From a virus (taxonomy: Duplodnaviria; Heunggongvirae; Uroviricota; Caudoviricetes): a stretch of 29,924 nt of DNA. This document shows positions 6,889 through 18,035 of this stretch, piece after piece (position 1 is the first letter of the stretch; each line of letters begins with the position of its first letter). The DNA is taken from IMG/VR virus record IMGVR_UViG_2541047891_000002. The stretch is one strand, 5' to 3'. Below the pieces are notes generated by a model. It was not told the DNA's origin. It searched no databases and saw nothing but the letters and a program-made list of their open reading frames with translations. Made by a program: the position numbers and the translations under genes.

Positions 6889-6913
6889 AAAGCCGGTTAA
6901 TCCGGCTTTTTTT
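6889..6913 (+). terminator. Rho-independent terminator ending the early transcript after mor
   Basis: Stem AGCCGG (6891-6896) / CCGGCT (6902-6907), 5-nt loop, then a run of 7 T; begins 6 bp after the mor stop. Confidence 0.75.
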
Positions 6914-6965
6914 ACGCCCTCAATATTCTGTTGTGACGATAAAACGTTCATTACAGGAGGGCAAC
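6914..6965 (+). promoter_or_regulatory. Candidate middle promoter region (Pm-equivalent, expected to be Mor-dependent)
   Basis: Position only: between the early terminator and the first middle-operon gene; contains TGACGATAAAAC; no element verified. Confidence 0.3.
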
Positions 6966-7526
6966 ATGCCTGAGTTTTCCCCTGCATTCCTTCATTCGCT
7001 GAATTTTGTTATACGGCCTGATGTTGAAGGTGGTTACGTTAATGATCCCACTGACCGTGGCGGCGAAACCAAATACGGCATTTCTGACCGTCGCGACGGC
7101 GTTATTGATGGCAAAACCGATGTTAACGGTGACGGGAAGCCTGATACCCGTATTAAAGATTTAACCCACGAGCAGGCGGCGCAAATCTACTGGCGTGATT
7201 ACTGGCTGGCGGCAAAGTGTAACGAATGGCCTGATGGTGTTTCCTTATTCGTCTTTGATGCTGCCGTTCAGCACGGTGTTAAACGCGCAATTCAAATCCT
7301 CCAGGCGGCAGCAGGTGTTGATGATGATGGCATCGTCGGCAAAAACACCCGCGCAGCCGTTCTGCGTGCCGACACTGACTGGCTGCTGTTGCAGTGTTTC
7401 CTGCGTCGTTCCCGCTATTACGCAGGGATTATCAAATCCAGTGCCTCGCAGGGGAAATATCTGAACGGCTGGTTTAACCGCCTGGATCTGCTCGCCAGCG
7501 TCTGCCGGGAGGTTCTGCATGGGTAA
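6966..7526 (+). CDS. GH108-family muramidase with C-terminal peptidoglycan-binding domain
   Basis: Track ORF 6933-7526; start ATG 6966 with AGGAGG 5 nt upstream; N-terminal EGGYVNDPTDRGGETKYGI motif typical of glycoside hydrolase family 108; C-terminal DGIVGKNTRAAV resembles PG_binding_3. Confidence 0.75.
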   Translation: MPEFSPAFLHSLNFVIRPDVEGGYVNDPTDRGGETKYGISDRRDGVIDGKTDVNGDGKPDTRIKDLTHEQAAQIYWRDYWLAAKCNEWPDGVSLFVFDAAVQHGVKRAIQILQAAAGVDDDGIVGKNTRAAVLRADTDWLLLQCFLRRSRYYAGIIKSSASQGKYLNGWFNRLDLLASVCREVLHG

Positions 7527-8110: not shown

Positions 8111-8232
8111 TGTACAGAAGATTCAGTAATGAATGTTCCGGCATGGCTACGTTGCTGATGGTGATGAAGGGTATCACAGTTATTGCACTGCTTGCCGTAG
8201 TCACGGGGATCTGTCTGTTAGTTTTTCGCTGA
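8107..8232 (+). CDS. Small single-pass membrane protein (~41 aa)
   Basis: Track ORF 8047-8232; ATG 8107/8110 next to GGAGG; one hydrophobic helix ITVIALLAVVTGICLLVF. Confidence 0.35.
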   Translation: MMYRRFSNECSGMATLLMVMKGITVIALLAVVTGICLLVFR

Positions 8233-8242
8233 TGGGGGCAAA

Positions 8243-8653
8243 ATGACAAATCAGCAGGATTTATTTGAACATGATCCGGCTGTAAGCCAGTTAATGGATC
8301 ATATCGACAATATACCGGCTCCTGAGCAGGAGGCCCGCTGGCCCCGCGCGCTGGTTGAGCTGGTTGACGTTCTGGAAACAGAACTGAAACGTCAGGGCGT
8401 GGATGATGCACGGAGCATAGCCCGTAAACAGGTGATGTCCTTATCATGGTTCCTGGGGGGACGGCAGTATTACATCCCCCGGGGTGATGCACTTCTGGCA
8501 GCGTTGCGGGATGATCTGATTTACTGCCAGTTTAACGGTCGGAACATAGAGGAGCTGCGGCGTGAACATCGTCTGTCACAACCGCAGATTTACAAGATTA
8601 TTGCCCGGCAGAGAAAACTTCATTCACGGCGACATCAGCCCGATTTATTCTGA
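8243..8653 (+). CDS. C: C, activator of late transcription (Mor/C family)
   Basis: 136 aa; C-terminal block YYIPRGDALLAALRDDLIYCQFNGRNIEELRREHRLSQPQIYKIIARQRK paralogous to Mor; directly upstream of lys as in Mu. Confidence 0.85.
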   Translation: MTNQQDLFEHDPAVSQLMDHIDNIPAPEQEARWPRALVELVDVLETELKRQGVDDARSIARKQVMSLSWFLGGRQYYIPRGDALLAALRDDLIYCQFNGRNIEELRREHRLSQPQIYKIIARQRKLHSRRHQPDLF

Positions 8654-8686
8654 GTAACAGCAATCAATCGGTGCAGGCCGGTTGTG

Positions 8687-8755
8687 TTAATTAATAATAA
8701 CCCCGCCTGCAAATTCCCCTGAGTTACCCTCCTTTTATTACCGAAGGAGGGTTTC
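8687..8755 (+). promoter_or_regulatory. Candidate C-dependent late promoter region for lys
   Basis: 12-mer ATAACCCCGCCT at 8697-8708 is repeated exactly at 15903-15914 upstream of I; both followed within ~10-15 bp by TCCCC; also a near-dyad TTAATTAATAATAA at 8687-8700. Confidence 0.4.
8726..8752 (+). promoter_or_regulatory. Hairpin sequestering the lys ribosome-binding site
   Basis: ACCCTCCTT (8726-8734) pairs with AAGGAGGGT (8744-8752) around a 9-nt loop; the right arm contains the AGGAGG Shine-Dalgarno 5 nt before the lys ATG. Confidence 0.45.
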
Positions 8756-9184
8756 ATGAACGATTTTAAAAAACGTCTCCCCCGCATCATCAGAACACTT
8801 GCCATCGTGGTACTGGCGGCATGTGGTGGCTGGCAGTTGTCCGGCGATGGTGATTCATCGCTGGTTTCTGTTCAGTACCTTCCATACACAGACCAGCACG
8901 GCGAACTGACAGTTTGCCTTAACCATCACGGTCCTGATATTCAGCAACGCCCTTACAGCTATGGTGAATGCATCATGCTGTTGAAAGCAGATTTGAAGCC
9001 TGTTTATGACACGTTAAATACCCATCTGAACAGGCCACTGACAGAGGAACAAAAAAATGCACTGGCGGTGTTTATGTTCAGCGCCGGTTCTGGTGCTGTG
9101 CCCGCTCCCCGTAATAATCAGCTGCTGAATGATGATGTGTTACCGGTGCCGGGATTAATGCCGGGTATGTCGTCAGGGCTGTAA
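8756..9184 (+). CDS. lys: Lysozyme-fold endolysin homologue with SAR-type N-terminus, possibly degenerate
   Basis: 142 aa; N-terminus MNDFKKRLPRIIRTLAIVVLAACGGWQL (two Lys then a weakly hydrophobic Gly/Ala-rich segment); core YLPYTDQHGELTVCLNHHG aligns to the Y.PY.D.....T.C.GH block of SAR lysozymes; see findings for missing Glu. Confidence 0.7.
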   Translation: MNDFKKRLPRIIRTLAIVVLAACGGWQLSGDGDSSLVSVQYLPYTDQHGELTVCLNHHGPDIQQRPYSYGECIMLLKADLKPVYDTLNTHLNRPLTEEQKNALAVFMFSAGSGAVPAPRNNQLLNDDVLPVPGLMPGMSSGL

Positions 9185-9196
9185 ACAGGAGAGCGT

Positions 9197-9496
9197 GTGG
9201 ATATTTATTCAGTGCTGACCTACTCGATAGGCAGTGGCAGCACCATTGGTGGCATTTTGTGGTGGGCGGTGAGGCGTACATTTGCCAGCACGGAACGTGT
9301 GGAGCAAATCGAAAGCCGTTTAACCGCGCTTGAAACGAAGTGCGAAAACATGCCCAGTGCACAGGATTTACATGCTGTCCGGTTACAGACCGCAGAAACC
9401 AATGGTGAAGTGAAAGCGATGAACCGGCACATACAGGTGCTGACCCATCAACTGGAGCTTTTGCTCGAAAAGGCGCTCGGAGAGAACAACAAATGA
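9197..9496 (+). CDS. Membrane-anchored coiled-coil protein (i-spanin-like or releasin-like)
   Basis: GTG start 9197 with CAGGAGAG upstream; N-terminal hydrophobic helix SIGSGSTIGGILWWAV followed by a helical/coiled-coil region (EQIESRLTALETKCE ... HQLELLLEKAL). Confidence 0.5.
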   Translation: MDIYSVLTYSIGSGSTIGGILWWAVRRTFASTERVEQIESRLTALETKCENMPSAQDLHAVRLQTAETNGEVKAMNRHIQVLTHQLELLLEKALGENNK

Positions 9497-9783
9497 TTGA
9501 CGACATTCTGACGCAGGATCGCCGCCTGGTCATCCTGCGTTCACTGATGGACTGCAATAACGAGGCTAACGAATCCATTTTGCAGGATTGCCTGGATGCT
9601 TACGGGCATAACGTTTCACGTGATGTGGTTCGTGGTCAGATTGACTGGCTGGCAGAACAGCAGCTTGTCACCGTGGAAAACCTGCGCGGCTTTTATGTCG
9701 TGACACTGACCTCCCGTGGTCAGGATGTGGCTGAAGGCCGGGCTCGTGTTTCCGGTGTCAAACGTCCACGTCCCCGCTTCTGA
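9493..9783 (+). CDS. Conserved Mu-like late protein, soluble (96 aa)
   Basis: ATGA overlap with upstream gene; no hydrophobic segment; sits between the lysis genes and the D-like gene. Confidence 0.55.
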   Translation: MIDDILTQDRRLVILRSLMDCNNEANESILQDCLDAYGHNVSRDVVRGQIDWLAEQQLVTVENLRGFYVVTLTSRGQDVAEGRARVSGVKRPRPRF

Positions 9784-10383: not shown

Positions 10384-10578
10384 ATGGCTGTTGAAACCAA
10401 AGAAAAAACGTCTGCGGAAATTGCCCTGAAACTCAAACCCATCGTCGAAGCGGCGCTGGCTGAGGAGGGCAATATTCATATCGTCACAAAAGCCGAATCA
10501 CTGTATCTGTTAATGCAGATTGTGGTTGGCCCGCGTATCGCGGGCCAGATCATCAGAGAGTCACAAATTAATCAGTAA
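10384..10578 (+). CDS. Hypothetical small protein (65 aa)
   Basis: ATG 10384 preceded by AGGAG (10371-10375) at 8-nt spacing; lies inside track ORF 10162-10578, whose upstream part overlaps the D-like gene. Confidence 0.4.
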   Translation: MAVETKEKTSAEIALKLKPIVEAALAEEGNIHIVTKAESLYLLMQIVVGPRIAGQIIRESQINQ

Positions 10579-14001: not shown

Positions 14002-15301
14002 TCTGGCGTATGCCGCACGCCTCCCGCCAAAGGAGGCTGTCGCGTATTTCCGCGCCAAAGGCTACAACATCACCTGGAACTGGTACGAACAACTGGCAGA
14101 CGCGCACGCCCGTGCCTTTACCGTTGCCAAAGCTGCCCGGATGGATGTCCTGACCACAATCCGTGAGGAAGTGGAGCGGGCTGTCAGTGAGGGTATCACC
14201 CGTGAGGAATTTACCCGCACACTGGCTCCCCGGTTGCAAAAGCTCGGATGGTGGGGAAAACAAATCATTGTGGATGCAGAGGGAAACGCGAAGGAAATCG
14301 AACTGGGCAGTCCGCGTCGTCTGGCAACCATTTATAACGTCAATACCCGTACAGCGTACGGGGCGGGACGTTATGCACAGATGATGAATACCGCAGACCT
14401 GTATCCGTACTGGCAGTATGTCGCCGTTATGGACAGCAGAACGCGCCCGGAACATGCCCGGCTGCATAATATGATTTTCCGGTATGACGATATTTTCTGG
14501 CAGACACATTACCCGCCCAATGGCTGGAGCTGTCGCTGCCGCGTTCGTGCGATATCTGCGACCCGAATGAAAGAACTGGGATTACAGGTCAGCTATGGTG
14601 CTTCATTCATGGATACCCGCGAAGTGGAGGCCGGCACGGATGAAAGCACAGGAGAGATTTTCCGCACATCGTCAACCACGTTTGACAACGGTCGGGTAAA
14701 AATGACGCCGGACGTTGGCTGGTCATATAACCCCGGTTCGGCGGCATTCGGTACTGATCAGGCGCTGATTCGAAAACTGGTGGAAGTTCGTGACGCGCAG
14801 CTGCGTGAGCAGGTTGTACAAACGCTGAATAACAGCCGGGAGCGCCAGCTTGCTTTTTCCCTGTGGCTTAATCGTCTGGCGAAATCACGTCACGCCGGGC
14901 GTGAGATCCGGGCACTGGGTTTTATGACGGAATCGGTAGCTGAAGCCGTACATCAGCGCACCGGGAATATGCCAGCCCGTTTACTGGTGATGAATGGAGA
15001 AAGTCTGGCTACCGCTGCTGATGCTGCCCTGAAAGCAGAGGATTTACAGCGTCTGCCGTCTCTGATGGCAGAACCACAGGCGGTATTGTGGGACAGAAAA
15101 AATCACCAGCTGCTGTACGTTGTGGCAACCCGTGACGGCACGGCCCAAATTGTGGTCAGAACATCACAGACAGTCGGCAGGCAGAATGACCGGGCGGATG
15201 TGCTGGTCAGTATCAGCCGCGTATCTGCACAGTCGCTTGAAGCCGCGATTGCTGACGGGATGATTGACGTACTGGAAGGGCATGTGGAGGTGAATAAGTG
15301 A
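13982..15301 (+). CDS. F: Head morphogenesis protein F (Mu F / SPP1 gp7 family)
   Basis: Track ORF 13946-15301; preferred start ATG 13982 with GGGGGCG upstream; contains RTRPEHARLHN ... PPNGWSCRCR block typical of the Mu F family. Confidence 0.85.
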   Translation: MPQQTIDLAYAARLPPKEAVAYFRAKGYNITWNWYEQLADAHARAFTVAKAARMDVLTTIREEVERAVSEGITREEFTRTLAPRLQKLGWWGKQIIVDAEGNAKEIELGSPRRLATIYNVNTRTAYGAGRYAQMMNTADLYPYWQYVAVMDSRTRPEHARLHNMIFRYDDIFWQTHYPPNGWSCRCRVRAISATRMKELGLQVSYGASFMDTREVEAGTDESTGEIFRTSSTTFDNGRVKMTPDVGWSYNPGSAAFGTDQALIRKLVEVRDAQLREQVVQTLNNSRERQLAFSLWLNRLAKSRHAGREIRALGFMTESVAEAVHQRTGNMPARLLVMNGESLATAADAALKAEDLQRLPSLMAEPQAVLWDRKNHQLLYVVATRDGTAQIVVRTSQTVGRQNDRADVLVSISRVSAQSLEAAIADGMIDVLEGHVEVNK

Positions 15302-15954: not shown

Positions 15955-17055
15955 ATGAGCAGGCCGGACATGAAAAAACACGCGATTGGTATTGCTGCGC
16001 TGGGTGCGCTGTCCATTGACGATGACGGCTGGTGCCAGCTATTGCCTGCCGGTTATTTCAGTGCCCGTGACGGTCGCCCGTTTGATGTAACAACTGGTCA
16101 GGGCTGGTTCATCGACGGAGAAATTGCCGGACGCCTGATTGAAGGTATCCGCGCACTTAACCAGGACGTGCTGATTGATTACGAGCATAACCAGCTGCGT
16201 AAGGACAAAGGATTACCCCCGGAACAACTGGTCGCGGCTGGCTGGTTTAACGCCGATGAAATGCAGTGGCGTGAAGGTGAAGGGTTATTTATCCACCCAC
16301 GCTGGACAGCGGCAGCCCAGCAGCGCATCGATGACGGTGAATTTGGTTATCTCTCTGCGGTTTTTCCGTATGACACCGCCACTGGTGCGGTACTGCAAAT
16401 CCGCCTTGCTGCGCTGACCAATGATCCCGGGGCCACCGGCATGAAAAAGCTGACCGCACTGGCGGCAGACCTTCCCGACATCCTTCAACAGGAGAACAAA
16501 CCCATGAATGAAACGCTGCGCAAGCTGCTTGCGCGTCTTGGGGTGACTGTCCCCGAAAATGCAGACATCACCGATGAACAGGCAACAGCGGCACTGACCG
16601 CGCTGGACACGCTGGAAAGTAACGCCGGGAAAGTGGCGGCGTTGTCTGCCGAACTGGAAAAGGCACAGAAAGCCGCCGTTGACCTGACGAAATACGTCCC
16701 GGTGGAAAGCTACAACGCCCTGCGTGATGAACTGGCACAGGCGACTGCACAAAGCGCCACAGCCAGCCTGAGCGCCGTTCTGGACAAGGCGGAACAGGAA
16801 GGCCGCATTTTCAAAAGCGAACGTACCTATCTGGAACAGCTTGGCGGTCAGATTGGCGTGGCGGCACTGTCGGCACAGCTTGAGAAAAAACAGCCCATCG
16901 CTGCGTTATCTGCCATGCAGACCACCACAGCGAAAATCCCGTCGCTGGAAAAACCGGCGGTGGCGGTGCTGTCTGCTGATGAACAGGCAGCAGTGAAGGC
17001 GCTCGGCATTACTGAGGCTGAGTATCTGAAAATGAAACAGGAACAAGAAAAATGA
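15955..17055 (+). CDS. I: Head protease / scaffold protein I (scaffold Z expected from an internal start)
   Basis: 366 aa; N-terminal half protease-like, C-terminal half Ala/Glu/Leu/Gln-rich helical scaffold-like sequence; directly upstream of major capsid gene. Confidence 0.85.
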   Translation: MSRPDMKKHAIGIAALGALSIDDDGWCQLLPAGYFSARDGRPFDVTTGQGWFIDGEIAGRLIEGIRALNQDVLIDYEHNQLRKDKGLPPEQLVAAGWFNADEMQWREGEGLFIHPRWTAAAQQRIDDGEFGYLSAVFPYDTATGAVLQIRLAALTNDPGATGMKKLTALAADLPDILQQENKPMNETLRKLLARLGVTVPENADITDEQATAALTALDTLESNAGKVAALSAELEKAQKAAVDLTKYVPVESYNALRDELAQATAQSATASLSAVLDKAEQEGRIFKSERTYLEQLGGQIGVAALSAQLEKKQPIAALSAMQTTTAKIPSLEKPAVAVLSADEQAAVKALGITEAEYLKMKQEQEK

Positions 17056-17969
17056 TTGTCACCCCGGCATCCATTAAAGCCCTGATGACCTCCTGGCGTA
17101 AGGATTTTCAGGGCGGTCTTGAAGACGCCCCGTCGCAGTACAGCAAAATTGCAATGGTGGTGAACTCCTCATCCCGCACTAATACCTATGGCTGGCTGGG
17201 TAAATTCCCTGCCATGAAAGAATGGGTGGGTAAGCGAACCATTCAGCAAATGGCAGCGCATGGCTACTCCATCGCCAATAAAACGTTTGAAGGCACCGTG
17301 GGCGTAAGCCGTGATGACTTCGAGGATGACAATCTGGGTATTTATGCGCCGATGTTTCAGGAGATGGGCCGTTCTGCGGCAGTTCAGCCGGATGAGCTGA
17401 TTTTTAAACTTCTGAAAGATGGCTTTACCCAGCCCTGCTATGACGGTCAGAACTTCTTCGACAAGGAGCATCCGGTATATCCGAATGTGGACGGCACGGG
17501 CAGCGCGGTTAATACCTCCAACATCGTTGAGCAGGACAGCTTCAGCGGTCTGCCATTCTATCTGCTGGACTGCTCCCGCGCAGTCAAACCGCTGATTTTC
17601 CAGGAGCGCCGCAAACCGGAACTGGTCGCACGTACCCGTATCGATGACGACCACGTTTTTATGGATAACGAGTTCCTGTTTGGTGCCAGCGCCCGCCGTG
17701 CTGCCGGTTACGGCTTCTGGCAGATGGCTGTCGCGGTAAAAGGCGATCTGACGCTGGATAACCTCTGGAAGGGCTGGCAACTGATGCGTTCTTTTGAAGG
17801 TGATGGCGGTAAGAAGCTGGGCCTGAAGCCGACGCATATCGTTGTACCGGTCGGACTGGAAAAATCCGCAGAGCAACTGCTTAACCGTGAGCTGTTCGCG
17901 GATGGCAATACCACCGTCTCTAACGAGATGAAGGGTAAGCTGCAACTGGTTGTCGCTGACTACCTGTAA
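17052..17969 (+). CDS. T: Major capsid protein T
   Basis: 305 aa; ATGA overlap with I; followed by a strong terminator; sequence matches recalled Mu T. Confidence 0.88.
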   Translation: MIVTPASIKALMTSWRKDFQGGLEDAPSQYSKIAMVVNSSSRTNTYGWLGKFPAMKEWVGKRTIQQMAAHGYSIANKTFEGTVGVSRDDFEDDNLGIYAPMFQEMGRSAAVQPDELIFKLLKDGFTQPCYDGQNFFDKEHPVYPNVDGTGSAVNTSNIVEQDSFSGLPFYLLDCSRAVKPLIFQERRKPELVARTRIDDDHVFMDNEFLFGASARRAAGYGFWQMAVAVKGDLTLDNLWKGWQLMRSFEGDGGKKLGLKPTHIVVPVGLEKSAEQLLNRELFADGNTTVSNEMKGKLQLVVADYL

Positions 17970-17977
17970 CCGTCGTT

Positions 17978-18001
17978 AAAAGGCGGTTCAGGCCGCCTTT
18001 T
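17978..18001 (+). terminator. Rho-independent terminator after the major capsid gene
   Basis: AAAAGGCGG (17978-17986) / CCGCCTTTT (17993-18001) perfect 9-bp stem with 6-nt loop and T-run in the 3' arm. Confidence 0.75.
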
Positions 18002-18035
18002 AACCTGATTTAAAGGAAAAGGAGGAGCATGTGTT

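Follow-up and report, generated by a model that had tools for sequence, protein, structure and literature searches.

The lys locus and its gene order

The window analysed here, the whole 29,924-nt stretch of IMG/VR record IMGVR_UViG_2541047891_000002, to which all hairpin coordinates refer, is a Mu-like prophage; three complete E. coli genomes (TUM9757, PEC422 and SE11) contain prophages that match it at 99.3-99.7% identity. With the annotated Mu record as the reference layout, the window has in common with Mu the order C, terminator hairpin, C box, -10 hexamer and lys. The C-like protein is homologous to Mu C, and the C gene shows approximately 72% DNA identity to its counterparts in Mu, D108 and SfMu, a similarity that stops at the C stop codon. 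The features relevant to the start of lys are the following:

8243-8653, plus strand: C-like activator of late genes, a Mor/C-family member that closes the middle operon (DNA ~72% identical to that of Mu C; Pfam Mor, 2e-32; labelled Mor family protein in an E. coli prophage of 99.7% identity)
8665-8684, plus strand: terminator-like hairpin right after C, at the position of the Mu post-C terminator (flagged by the terminator scan)
8687-8705, plus strand: predicted C-binding box, TTAA-N6-ATAA (8687-8700) and then CCCCG (match to the MuC consensus type)
8725-8730, plus strand: TACCCT, predicted as the -10 hexamer of the C-dependent promoter of lys (Plys) and overlapping the hairpin's 5' arm (offset from the first base of ATAA of exactly 28 nt, as in Mu Plys and PP)
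8726-8735, plus strand: anti-SD-like ACCCUCCUU followed by U, forming the hairpin's 5' arm (from folding and complementarity; predicted to be absent from Plys-initiated RNA)
8737-8740, plus strand: predicted start of the late lys mRNA, inside the loop at 8735-8743 (by homology to Mu Plys, PI and PP, where transcription begins 40-43 nt from the first base of ATAA)
8744-8752, plus strand: 3' arm of the hairpin, carrying the Shine-Dalgarno (SD) sequence AAGGAGGGU (invariant in all six relatives)
8756-9184, plus strand: short lys ORF of 142 aa, first gene after the predicted Plys, encoding a truncated lysozyme-family protein (41% identity to Mu Lys over 111 aa)
8771-8780, plus strand: coding segment AAACGUCUCC, codons 6-9, a weak pairing partner of the SD in the predicted fold of the late mRNA

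The terminator-like hairpin directly after C is present in the window, in the relatives L013 and L019 and in Mu, but it is weaker in the window (-10.5 kcal/mol, followed by the U-poor tail UGUGUUAAUU) than in L013 (-15.3 kcal/mol) or Mu (-16.1 kcal/mol). In relatives L015-L018 a two-gene module separates C from lys, and the C box, the -10 hexamer and the SD hairpin remain with lys. The module (L015 1830-2348; L018 1729-2262) consists of a minus-strand ORF of 108-113 aa and a plus-strand ORF of 63 aa, neither of which has Pfam matches.

The short Lys protein and the lysis genes

The lys product had been taken for an endolysin in an earlier note on this DNA, a designation that its sequence puts in doubt. 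The short Lys aligns with only positions 7-93 of the 125 in Pfam PF00959, scoring 43 bits against 130 for Mu Lys, and it is missing the C-terminal ~55 residues of Mu Lys and the C-terminal quarter of the fold. The position of the Mu catalytic residue E37 is occupied by V, A, D, A and D in five homologues, Val being the residue in the window; in Mu gp22, the substitution E37A has been used to inactivate the protein (PMC9239132). Mu Lys, by contrast, is a full-length SAR endolysin with an E-D-T catalytic triad. Given its truncation and the absence of the catalytic Glu, the short Lys is probably not the working endolysin. It retains a basic N-terminus, a hydrophobic segment and an invariant LAAC/LAVC-GGWQL motif resembling a lipobox, features consistent with what is probably a non-catalytic, membrane- or lipid-anchored protein kept beside the DUF2730 (releasin-like) gene.

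The lysis cassette is rearranged in the short-lys clade. Between lys and the DUF2730 (gp25-like) gene at 9197 (interval 9184-9197) there are no spanin genes, unlike in Mu, where genes 23, 23.1 and 24 are found, and a complete GH108 + PG_binding_3 enzyme is encoded in the middle operon (6966-7526). The GH108 gene is inserted directly behind mor/Pm, before the homologues of gp18, gp19 and gp20.

A stable hairpin covers the lys Shine-Dalgarno sequence

The earlier note had reported a perfect 9-bp stem with a 9-nt loop, burying the SD of lys 4 nt before its ATG. The stem is real: ACCCTCCTT (8726-8734) and AAGGAGGGT (8744-8752) are 100% complementary, with 9 nt between them, and in RNA U8735·G8743 forms a tenth pair that leaves a loop of 7 nt. 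The folding-energy calculation that the note had proposed as a check likewise came out in its favour, with the 27-mer folding at -14.5 kcal/mol against -5.6 +/- 2.1 kcal/mol for dinucleotide shuffles (z = -4.16), none of the 200 shuffles being as stable, and three outer pairs (UGA 8720-8722 with UCA 8754-8756, reaching the A of the ATG) bring the hairpin to -16.6 kcal/mol. The SD is indeed buried, AGGAGG (8745-8750) lying entirely inside the 3' arm; the spacing is off by one base, since GTTTC places 5 nt between AGGAGG and the ATG at 8756, and the reported 4 nt apply if the SD is read as AGGAGGG. Among the 33 gene starts of the window, that of lys ranks second both for the stability of its initiation-region fold and for low SD accessibility (probability of being unpaired, 0.11). 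As in occlusion of the T4 gene e type, the SD of window lys is held in a stable local helix (-14.5 to -16.6 kcal/mol).

Perfect hairpins of at least 9 bp are found at four distinct places in the window (7 overlapping 9-mers), against 1.3 9-mers expected in shuffled sequence, and a 9-bp stem within 30 kb is therefore unremarkable on its own. What goes beyond chance is the position of the hairpin and its retention in relatives, rather than the stem itself. The C boxes upstream of the I- and P-type genes are not accompanied by a comparable SD hairpin.

Several other inverted repeats were observed in the window. A second one at 8672-8711 (TGCAGGCCGG / CCCGCCTGCA, 90% complementary, 20-nt loop) flanks the C box, and the CCCCGCC of the C box is able to pair with the lys SD as a weaker alternative to the hairpin. 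A perfect 12-bp hairpin at 17975-18004 (GTTAAAAGGCGG ... CCGCCTTTTAAC), just past the gene for the major head subunit (17052-17969), probably ends transcription within the operon or stabilises the RNA. Further perfect 9-bp hairpins occur at 9511-9540 and 10527-10547.

The location of the SD hairpin downstream of C, behind a post-C terminator that is weakened and U-poor in the window, invites the reading that it terminates the C (middle) transcript, in a back-up or primary role, or stabilises the 3' end of that transcript, and that it covers the SD incidentally or secondarily; in keeping with this, UUUUGUG follows the stem in L015, L016 and L019. The stem-loop is also G+C-rich, as intrinsic terminators are, but the run of U expected immediately 3' of the stem is missing: UUCAUGAA, which follows it in the window, holds no U-tract, and in L018 the conserved 10-pair core is followed by GCCAUGAAU. 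The terminator scan did not flag the SD hairpin, and on this point the earlier note, which had expected poor termination for want of a T-tract, was right. Moreover, the window, L013, L019 and Mu all have a separate terminator-like hairpin directly after C, and the SD helix reaches over the start codon with compensating changes for which a terminator would have no need. We consider a terminator or stabiliser role distinctly unlikely.

A C-dependent promoter is predicted to start inside the hairpin

The C protein binds a 16-bp imperfect dyad centred at -43.5, and Mu late promoters possess a -10 hexamer and no -35 element (PMC2582627); the consensus of the MuC box is TTAT-N5-6-ATAA (PMC12867686). 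Start sites in Mu were derived indirectly, from the design of the oligonucleotides in PMC4461284, which for Plys, PI and PP reach 20 nt downstream of the S1-mapped starts. The GenBank 'promoter' feature of Mu Plys (67 nt) disagrees with the interval from -60 to +8 around the oligonucleotide-derived start, and was not used to set +1. Measured in this way, the hexamers of Mu Plys (TAGACT) and PP (TATCCT) begin 28 nt after the start of ATAA, with +1 at 40-41 nt, and the +1 of PI lies 42-43 nt after the start of ATAA.

The region upstream of lys in the window shows, by sequence, each of the elements of a C-dependent Mu late promoter (a C box, a recognisable -10 and no -35), with the box-to-hexamer spacing of Mu Plys, and the TACCCT hexamer takes up the first five bases of the hairpin 5' arm. 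Boxes of the form ATAACCCCG recur on the plus strand upstream of the I-like gene and, as in Mu, inside the gene preceding the P-like gene, and the hexamers of these I-type and P-type promoters (CACACT and TATCCT, both of the form yAnnCT) stand at the same 28-nt offset from ATAA. Nine other relatives hold the box-to-hexamer geometry, with TATTCT, TATCCT, TACTCT or TAACCT at an offset of 27-28. No sigma-70 -35/-10 promoter was found in 8200-9300, as expected of an activator-dependent promoter. A fourth plus-strand ATAACCCC box, at 14727-14734 within the F-like minor head gene, has TGATCA at the 28-nt offset, which does not resemble a -10 hexamer; this box is probably fortuitous, or else a C site without promoter function.

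From this geometry we infer that lys transcription starts within the hairpin loop, at 8737-8740. The predicted start thus falls 3' of the 5' strand of the helix, and it follows that lys mRNA made under C control should be without the 5' arm, with its SD exposed. The box, the hexamer and the hairpin accompany lys even across the two-gene module of L015-L018, which indicates that Plys is the gene's own promoter.

These observations bear directly on the role that the earlier note had assigned to the hairpin, namely that it might throttle or time translation depending on the transcript that carries it. The hairpin is stable and covers the SD, and it would limit lys translation if lys were expressed mainly from upstream transcripts. 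That the working lys mRNA carries the hairpin and is throttled or delayed in translation by it is nevertheless highly unlikely, since the C box and the -10 hexamer, at Mu-like spacing, put +1 in the loop, and since box, hexamer and hairpin travel with lys even beyond the two-gene module. The note had itself named, as an outcome that would speak against it, a lys transcript whose 5' end lies within the left arm or downstream of it, and such a start is what the promoter geometry predicts (-10 at 8725-8730, +1 at 8737-8740). The broader suggestion of a post-transcriptional control that depends on the transcript survives, and provides the best reading of the hairpin; throttling of the lys mRNA proper does not.

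Conservation in the short-lys clade

A search of 5.8 billion sequences for the short lys returned five protein clusters only, with 99, 88, 71, 66 and 64% identity to the window protein, all of 138-142 aa and all from E. coli and Salmonella diarizonae. Other searches added little to this set. A profile search of the same 5.8-billion-protein collection found no member outside the five clusters; a scan of metagenome contigs returned two 99%-identical copies only; in genome contigs, the single-protein query gave no match and the alignment query one spurious 23-residue match in Chromohalobacter; distant-mode BLAST against complete E. coli genomes recovered the three near-identical prophages only; and a scan of viral contigs with an alignment of C proteins yielded Mu-type and L005-type loci only, which do not carry a strong SD hairpin. 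The comparative set consequently comprises six distinct sequences.

The contigs of the short-lys clusters present, upstream of lys, the same succession of C box, hexamer, 5' arm, loop, AAGGAGGGU and start codon. The SD-covering hairpin is kept in all five short-lys lineages (88-64% protein identity), with z ranging from -3.0 to -8.4, and in every lineage the -10 hexamer lies within the 5' arm and the predicted start within the loop. The hairpin energies are:

Window: -16.6 kcal/mol, including the three outer pairs
L013: -16.2 kcal/mol
L015: -19.9 kcal/mol
L016: -19.0 kcal/mol
L018: -28.2 kcal/mol (18 pairs, CAUGGC... to ...GCCAUG)
L019: -14.4 kcal/mol

Because the MAFFT alignment shifted the 5' arms by one column relative to the structure, we padded the loops with N to equal length, obtaining a structure-registered alignment of the six sequences. 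On this alignment a 17-pair helix has 83% of its cells paired, a value that sliding the 3' partner by 1-3 columns lowers to 45-64%, and 59 of the 60 cells in the inner ten pairs are paired. Departures from Watson-Crick pairing in the 5' arm amount to 7 G·U cells and 1 mismatch, a pattern compatible with pairing in RNA and incompatible with pairing in DNA; nearly all the 5'-arm changes are C-to-U and preserve RNA pairing. Two pairs have changed on both sides, one of them C-G versus U-A at the first base of the start codon (GUG/CAC, AUG/CAU) and the other A-U versus C-G. Mean pairwise identity is 0.95 in the 3' arm, 0.78 in the 5' arm, 0.59 in the spacer and 0.61 in the loop.

In the shuffle controls, 82 of 500 alignments reached the observed percentage of paired cells and 131 of 500 the observed two-sided changes, values that are not significant, as is explained by the small number of sequences (six) and the invariant 3' arm; we therefore do not claim statistical covariation. 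A rough binomial test of the substitution pattern gives p ~0.01-0.04, a value that depends on the assumed transition fraction. The arms are, in addition, under constraints independent of pairing, ACCCT of the 5' arm as part of the -10 hexamer and the 3' arm as SD. The comparative evidence is hence suggestive, consistent with a conserved RNA helix but not proof of it.

Two further explanations can be weighed against these data. The hairpin could be a functionless coincidence, in which a purine-rich, strong SD happens to lie near a pyrimidine-rich -10 and discriminator and each is conserved separately. The expectation of about one perfect 9-bp stem per 30 kb, the separate maintenance of ACCCU as -10 and of the 3' arm as SD, and the non-significant covariation statistics are all in line with it. 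What makes it unlikely, in our view, is that CCUUU, the portion of the 5' arm outside the hexamer, is absent from the other C-type promoters of the window and yet pairs in all lineages, that the changes are almost all wobble-compatible, that the helix is extended across the start codon in L018 and L015, and that the paired fraction drops from 83% to 45-64% when the partner is slid. Alternatively, the inverted repeat, which covers -11 to +16 of the predicted promoter, could act in the DNA, as a cruciform or a palindromic protein site modulating Plys. This we deem extremely improbable: the T·G oppositions of the relatives are mismatches in DNA, the two arms are unequally conserved, the 3' arm being invariant and the 5' arm variable, and short arms with a 7-9-nt loop disfavour cruciform extrusion.

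A proposed transcript-specific mask on lys translation

The energetic cost of opening the initiation region (-14 to +3) was computed for read-through RNA (-100 to +40) and for RNA beginning at the predicted start:

Window: read-through RNA, 17.0 kcal/mol; predicted-start RNA, 8.9 kcal/mol
Short-lys clade (range): read-through RNA, 15-25 kcal/mol; predicted-start RNA, 7-9 kcal/mol
Mu and full-length-lys relatives: read-through RNA, 11-13 kcal/mol; predicted-start RNA, 4-6 kcal/mol

The contrast between the two RNAs in the short-lys clade is robust to shifts of +/-4 nt in the assumed start, and comparison with Mu and the full-length-lys relatives identifies the strong mask as specific to this clade. 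In the window, RNA from 8737 folds at -9.1 kcal/mol over 59 nt, and the probability of the SD being unpaired rises from 0.11 in the full hairpin to 0.26. In these models the late lys mRNA is freer, with an opening cost 8 kcal/mol below that of read-through RNA, yet its SD can still pair weakly with codons 6-9.

We propose, with a probability of roughly 0.58, that the hairpin is a transcript-specific translational mask, present only on RNA begun upstream of the lys promoter. Such RNA would arise from Pm middle-operon transcripts assumed to pass the weak post-C terminator, and from any other upstream transcription; the weakening of this terminator in the window makes some read-through of middle transcripts plausible. 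On upstream-started RNA, a helix of 10-18 bp would lock up the SD, together with the start codon in the case of the relatives, and ribosomes would be blocked at lys. With the C stop codon 73 nt away, no upstream ribosome would be at hand to melt the helix. Once C protein activates Plys, RNA polymerase would use the -10 hexamer inside the 5' arm and start in the loop, and the resulting late mRNA, devoid of the 5' arm, would offer a very strong SD, free and 8 nt from its 5' end. Untranslated read-through RNA might moreover be exposed to Rho-dependent termination and decay, which would insulate the late operon. A consideration that counts against the proposed mask is that, if the short Lys is inactive, the selective reason for masking it is hard to see.

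Comparison with known systems

In T4, the genes e, soc, 49 and I-TevI have their SD and/or start codon in a hairpin on long, earlier transcripts, whereas their late transcripts do not include one of the strands and are translated (McPheeters et al. 1986, reviewed in PMC3014915). Window lys resembles T4 gene e in being a lysis-type gene whose start site is predicted to be hidden on upstream-begun RNA. The two systems differ in other respects. The T4 late promoter is recognised through gp55 (TATAAATA), whereas that of the window would rely on sigma-70 and an activator of the Mor/C family, with a C box and a TAnnCT hexamer; the window is a temperate, transposable Mu-like prophage, and there is no sequence relationship between the two systems; and gene e encodes a lysozyme, while the window product appears to be a catalytically dead lysozyme homologue.

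Mu itself differs from the window at the same position. The SD of Mu lys is weak (GGA) and is not covered by a strong hairpin, and opening it costs 11.0 kcal/mol on read-through RNA and 5.9 kcal/mol on late RNA, against 17.0 and 8.9 kcal/mol in the window. With no comparable hairpin in Mu, the arrangement is not a general Mu feature.

At com-mom of Mu, a hairpin conceals the translation start region of a potentially toxic late gene. The block on mom is lifted by binding of the Com protein to the mRNA, whereas that on window lys is predicted to be lifted by promoter choice. As an SD-occluding hairpin is at the core of both RNA thermometers and the com-mom system, the window hairpin might be thought a thermometer or the target of a trans-acting translation activator like Com. 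There is, in our estimation, only a very slight chance of this. No Rfam family came near its threshold (the best overlapping match scored 17.8 bits against a gathering score of 55), and there is no ORF like com that overlaps the hairpin or adjoins it: C ends 73 nt upstream, and no plus-strand ORF has its stop nearby. Stems of -14 to -28 kcal/mol are, furthermore, far stabler than those of thermometers.

The literature searchable on Mu and Mu-like phages yielded no description of transcript-specific SD masking. The mechanism proposed here for window lys is thus of a kind already known, from T4, and is new for Mu-like phages as far as that search shows; Mu itself does not have it.

A possible second device at the middle promoter

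A related arrangement was observed at the start of the GH108 gene. Its SD (CAGGAGGGC, 6955-6963; ATG at 6966) pairs with GCCCUC at 6916-6921. Homology to Mu Pm predicts a start near 6937, which would put GCCCUC upstream of it, at about -21 to -16; the landmarks in this region (6889-6970) are the Mor box and terminator AAAGCCGGttaatCCGGCTTTTTTT and a -10 hexamer, TATTCT, at 6924-6929. RNA spanning 6912-6970 folds at -18.5 kcal/mol (z = -3.4), and RNA from 6937 at -2.9 kcal/mol (z = -0.1). The pairing of the GH108 SD is kept in L019 (-20.9 kcal/mol, z = -3.7) and is weaker in L018 (z = -0.85), and the sequences are too similar for covariation to be assessed.

The middle promoter at GH108 may accordingly carry the same design as lys. 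A more tentative extension, which we regard as possible but doubtful, is that in one Mu-like clade the Mor-dependent Pm and the C-dependent Plys have both evolved an anti-SD just upstream of their start, so that the first gene behind each (the GH108 endolysin and the short, membrane-targeted Lys) would be translatable only from its own promoter and silent on read-through RNA. A temperate transposable phage would then have converged independently on what T4 does at gene e, and the device would be linked to the remodelling of its lysis cassette, where the former SAR endolysin is now non-catalytic.

Implications

The lys hairpin suggests a rule for annotation: where a hairpin covers an SD, the position of the transcription start should be considered before the hairpin is labelled a translational throttle. 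The analysis also draws attention to a small clade where another enzyme, probably GH108, has taken over the function of the Mu SAR endolysin, which has yet been kept in a truncated, probably inactive form, a retention that is relevant to work on Mu lysis and the gp25 releasin. If confirmed, a late promoter placed inside an SD-occluding hairpin would bring to Mu-like phages a solution earlier documented for T4, and a second device at Pm and GH108, if confirmed in turn, would add to its interest. [quoted passage not shown]
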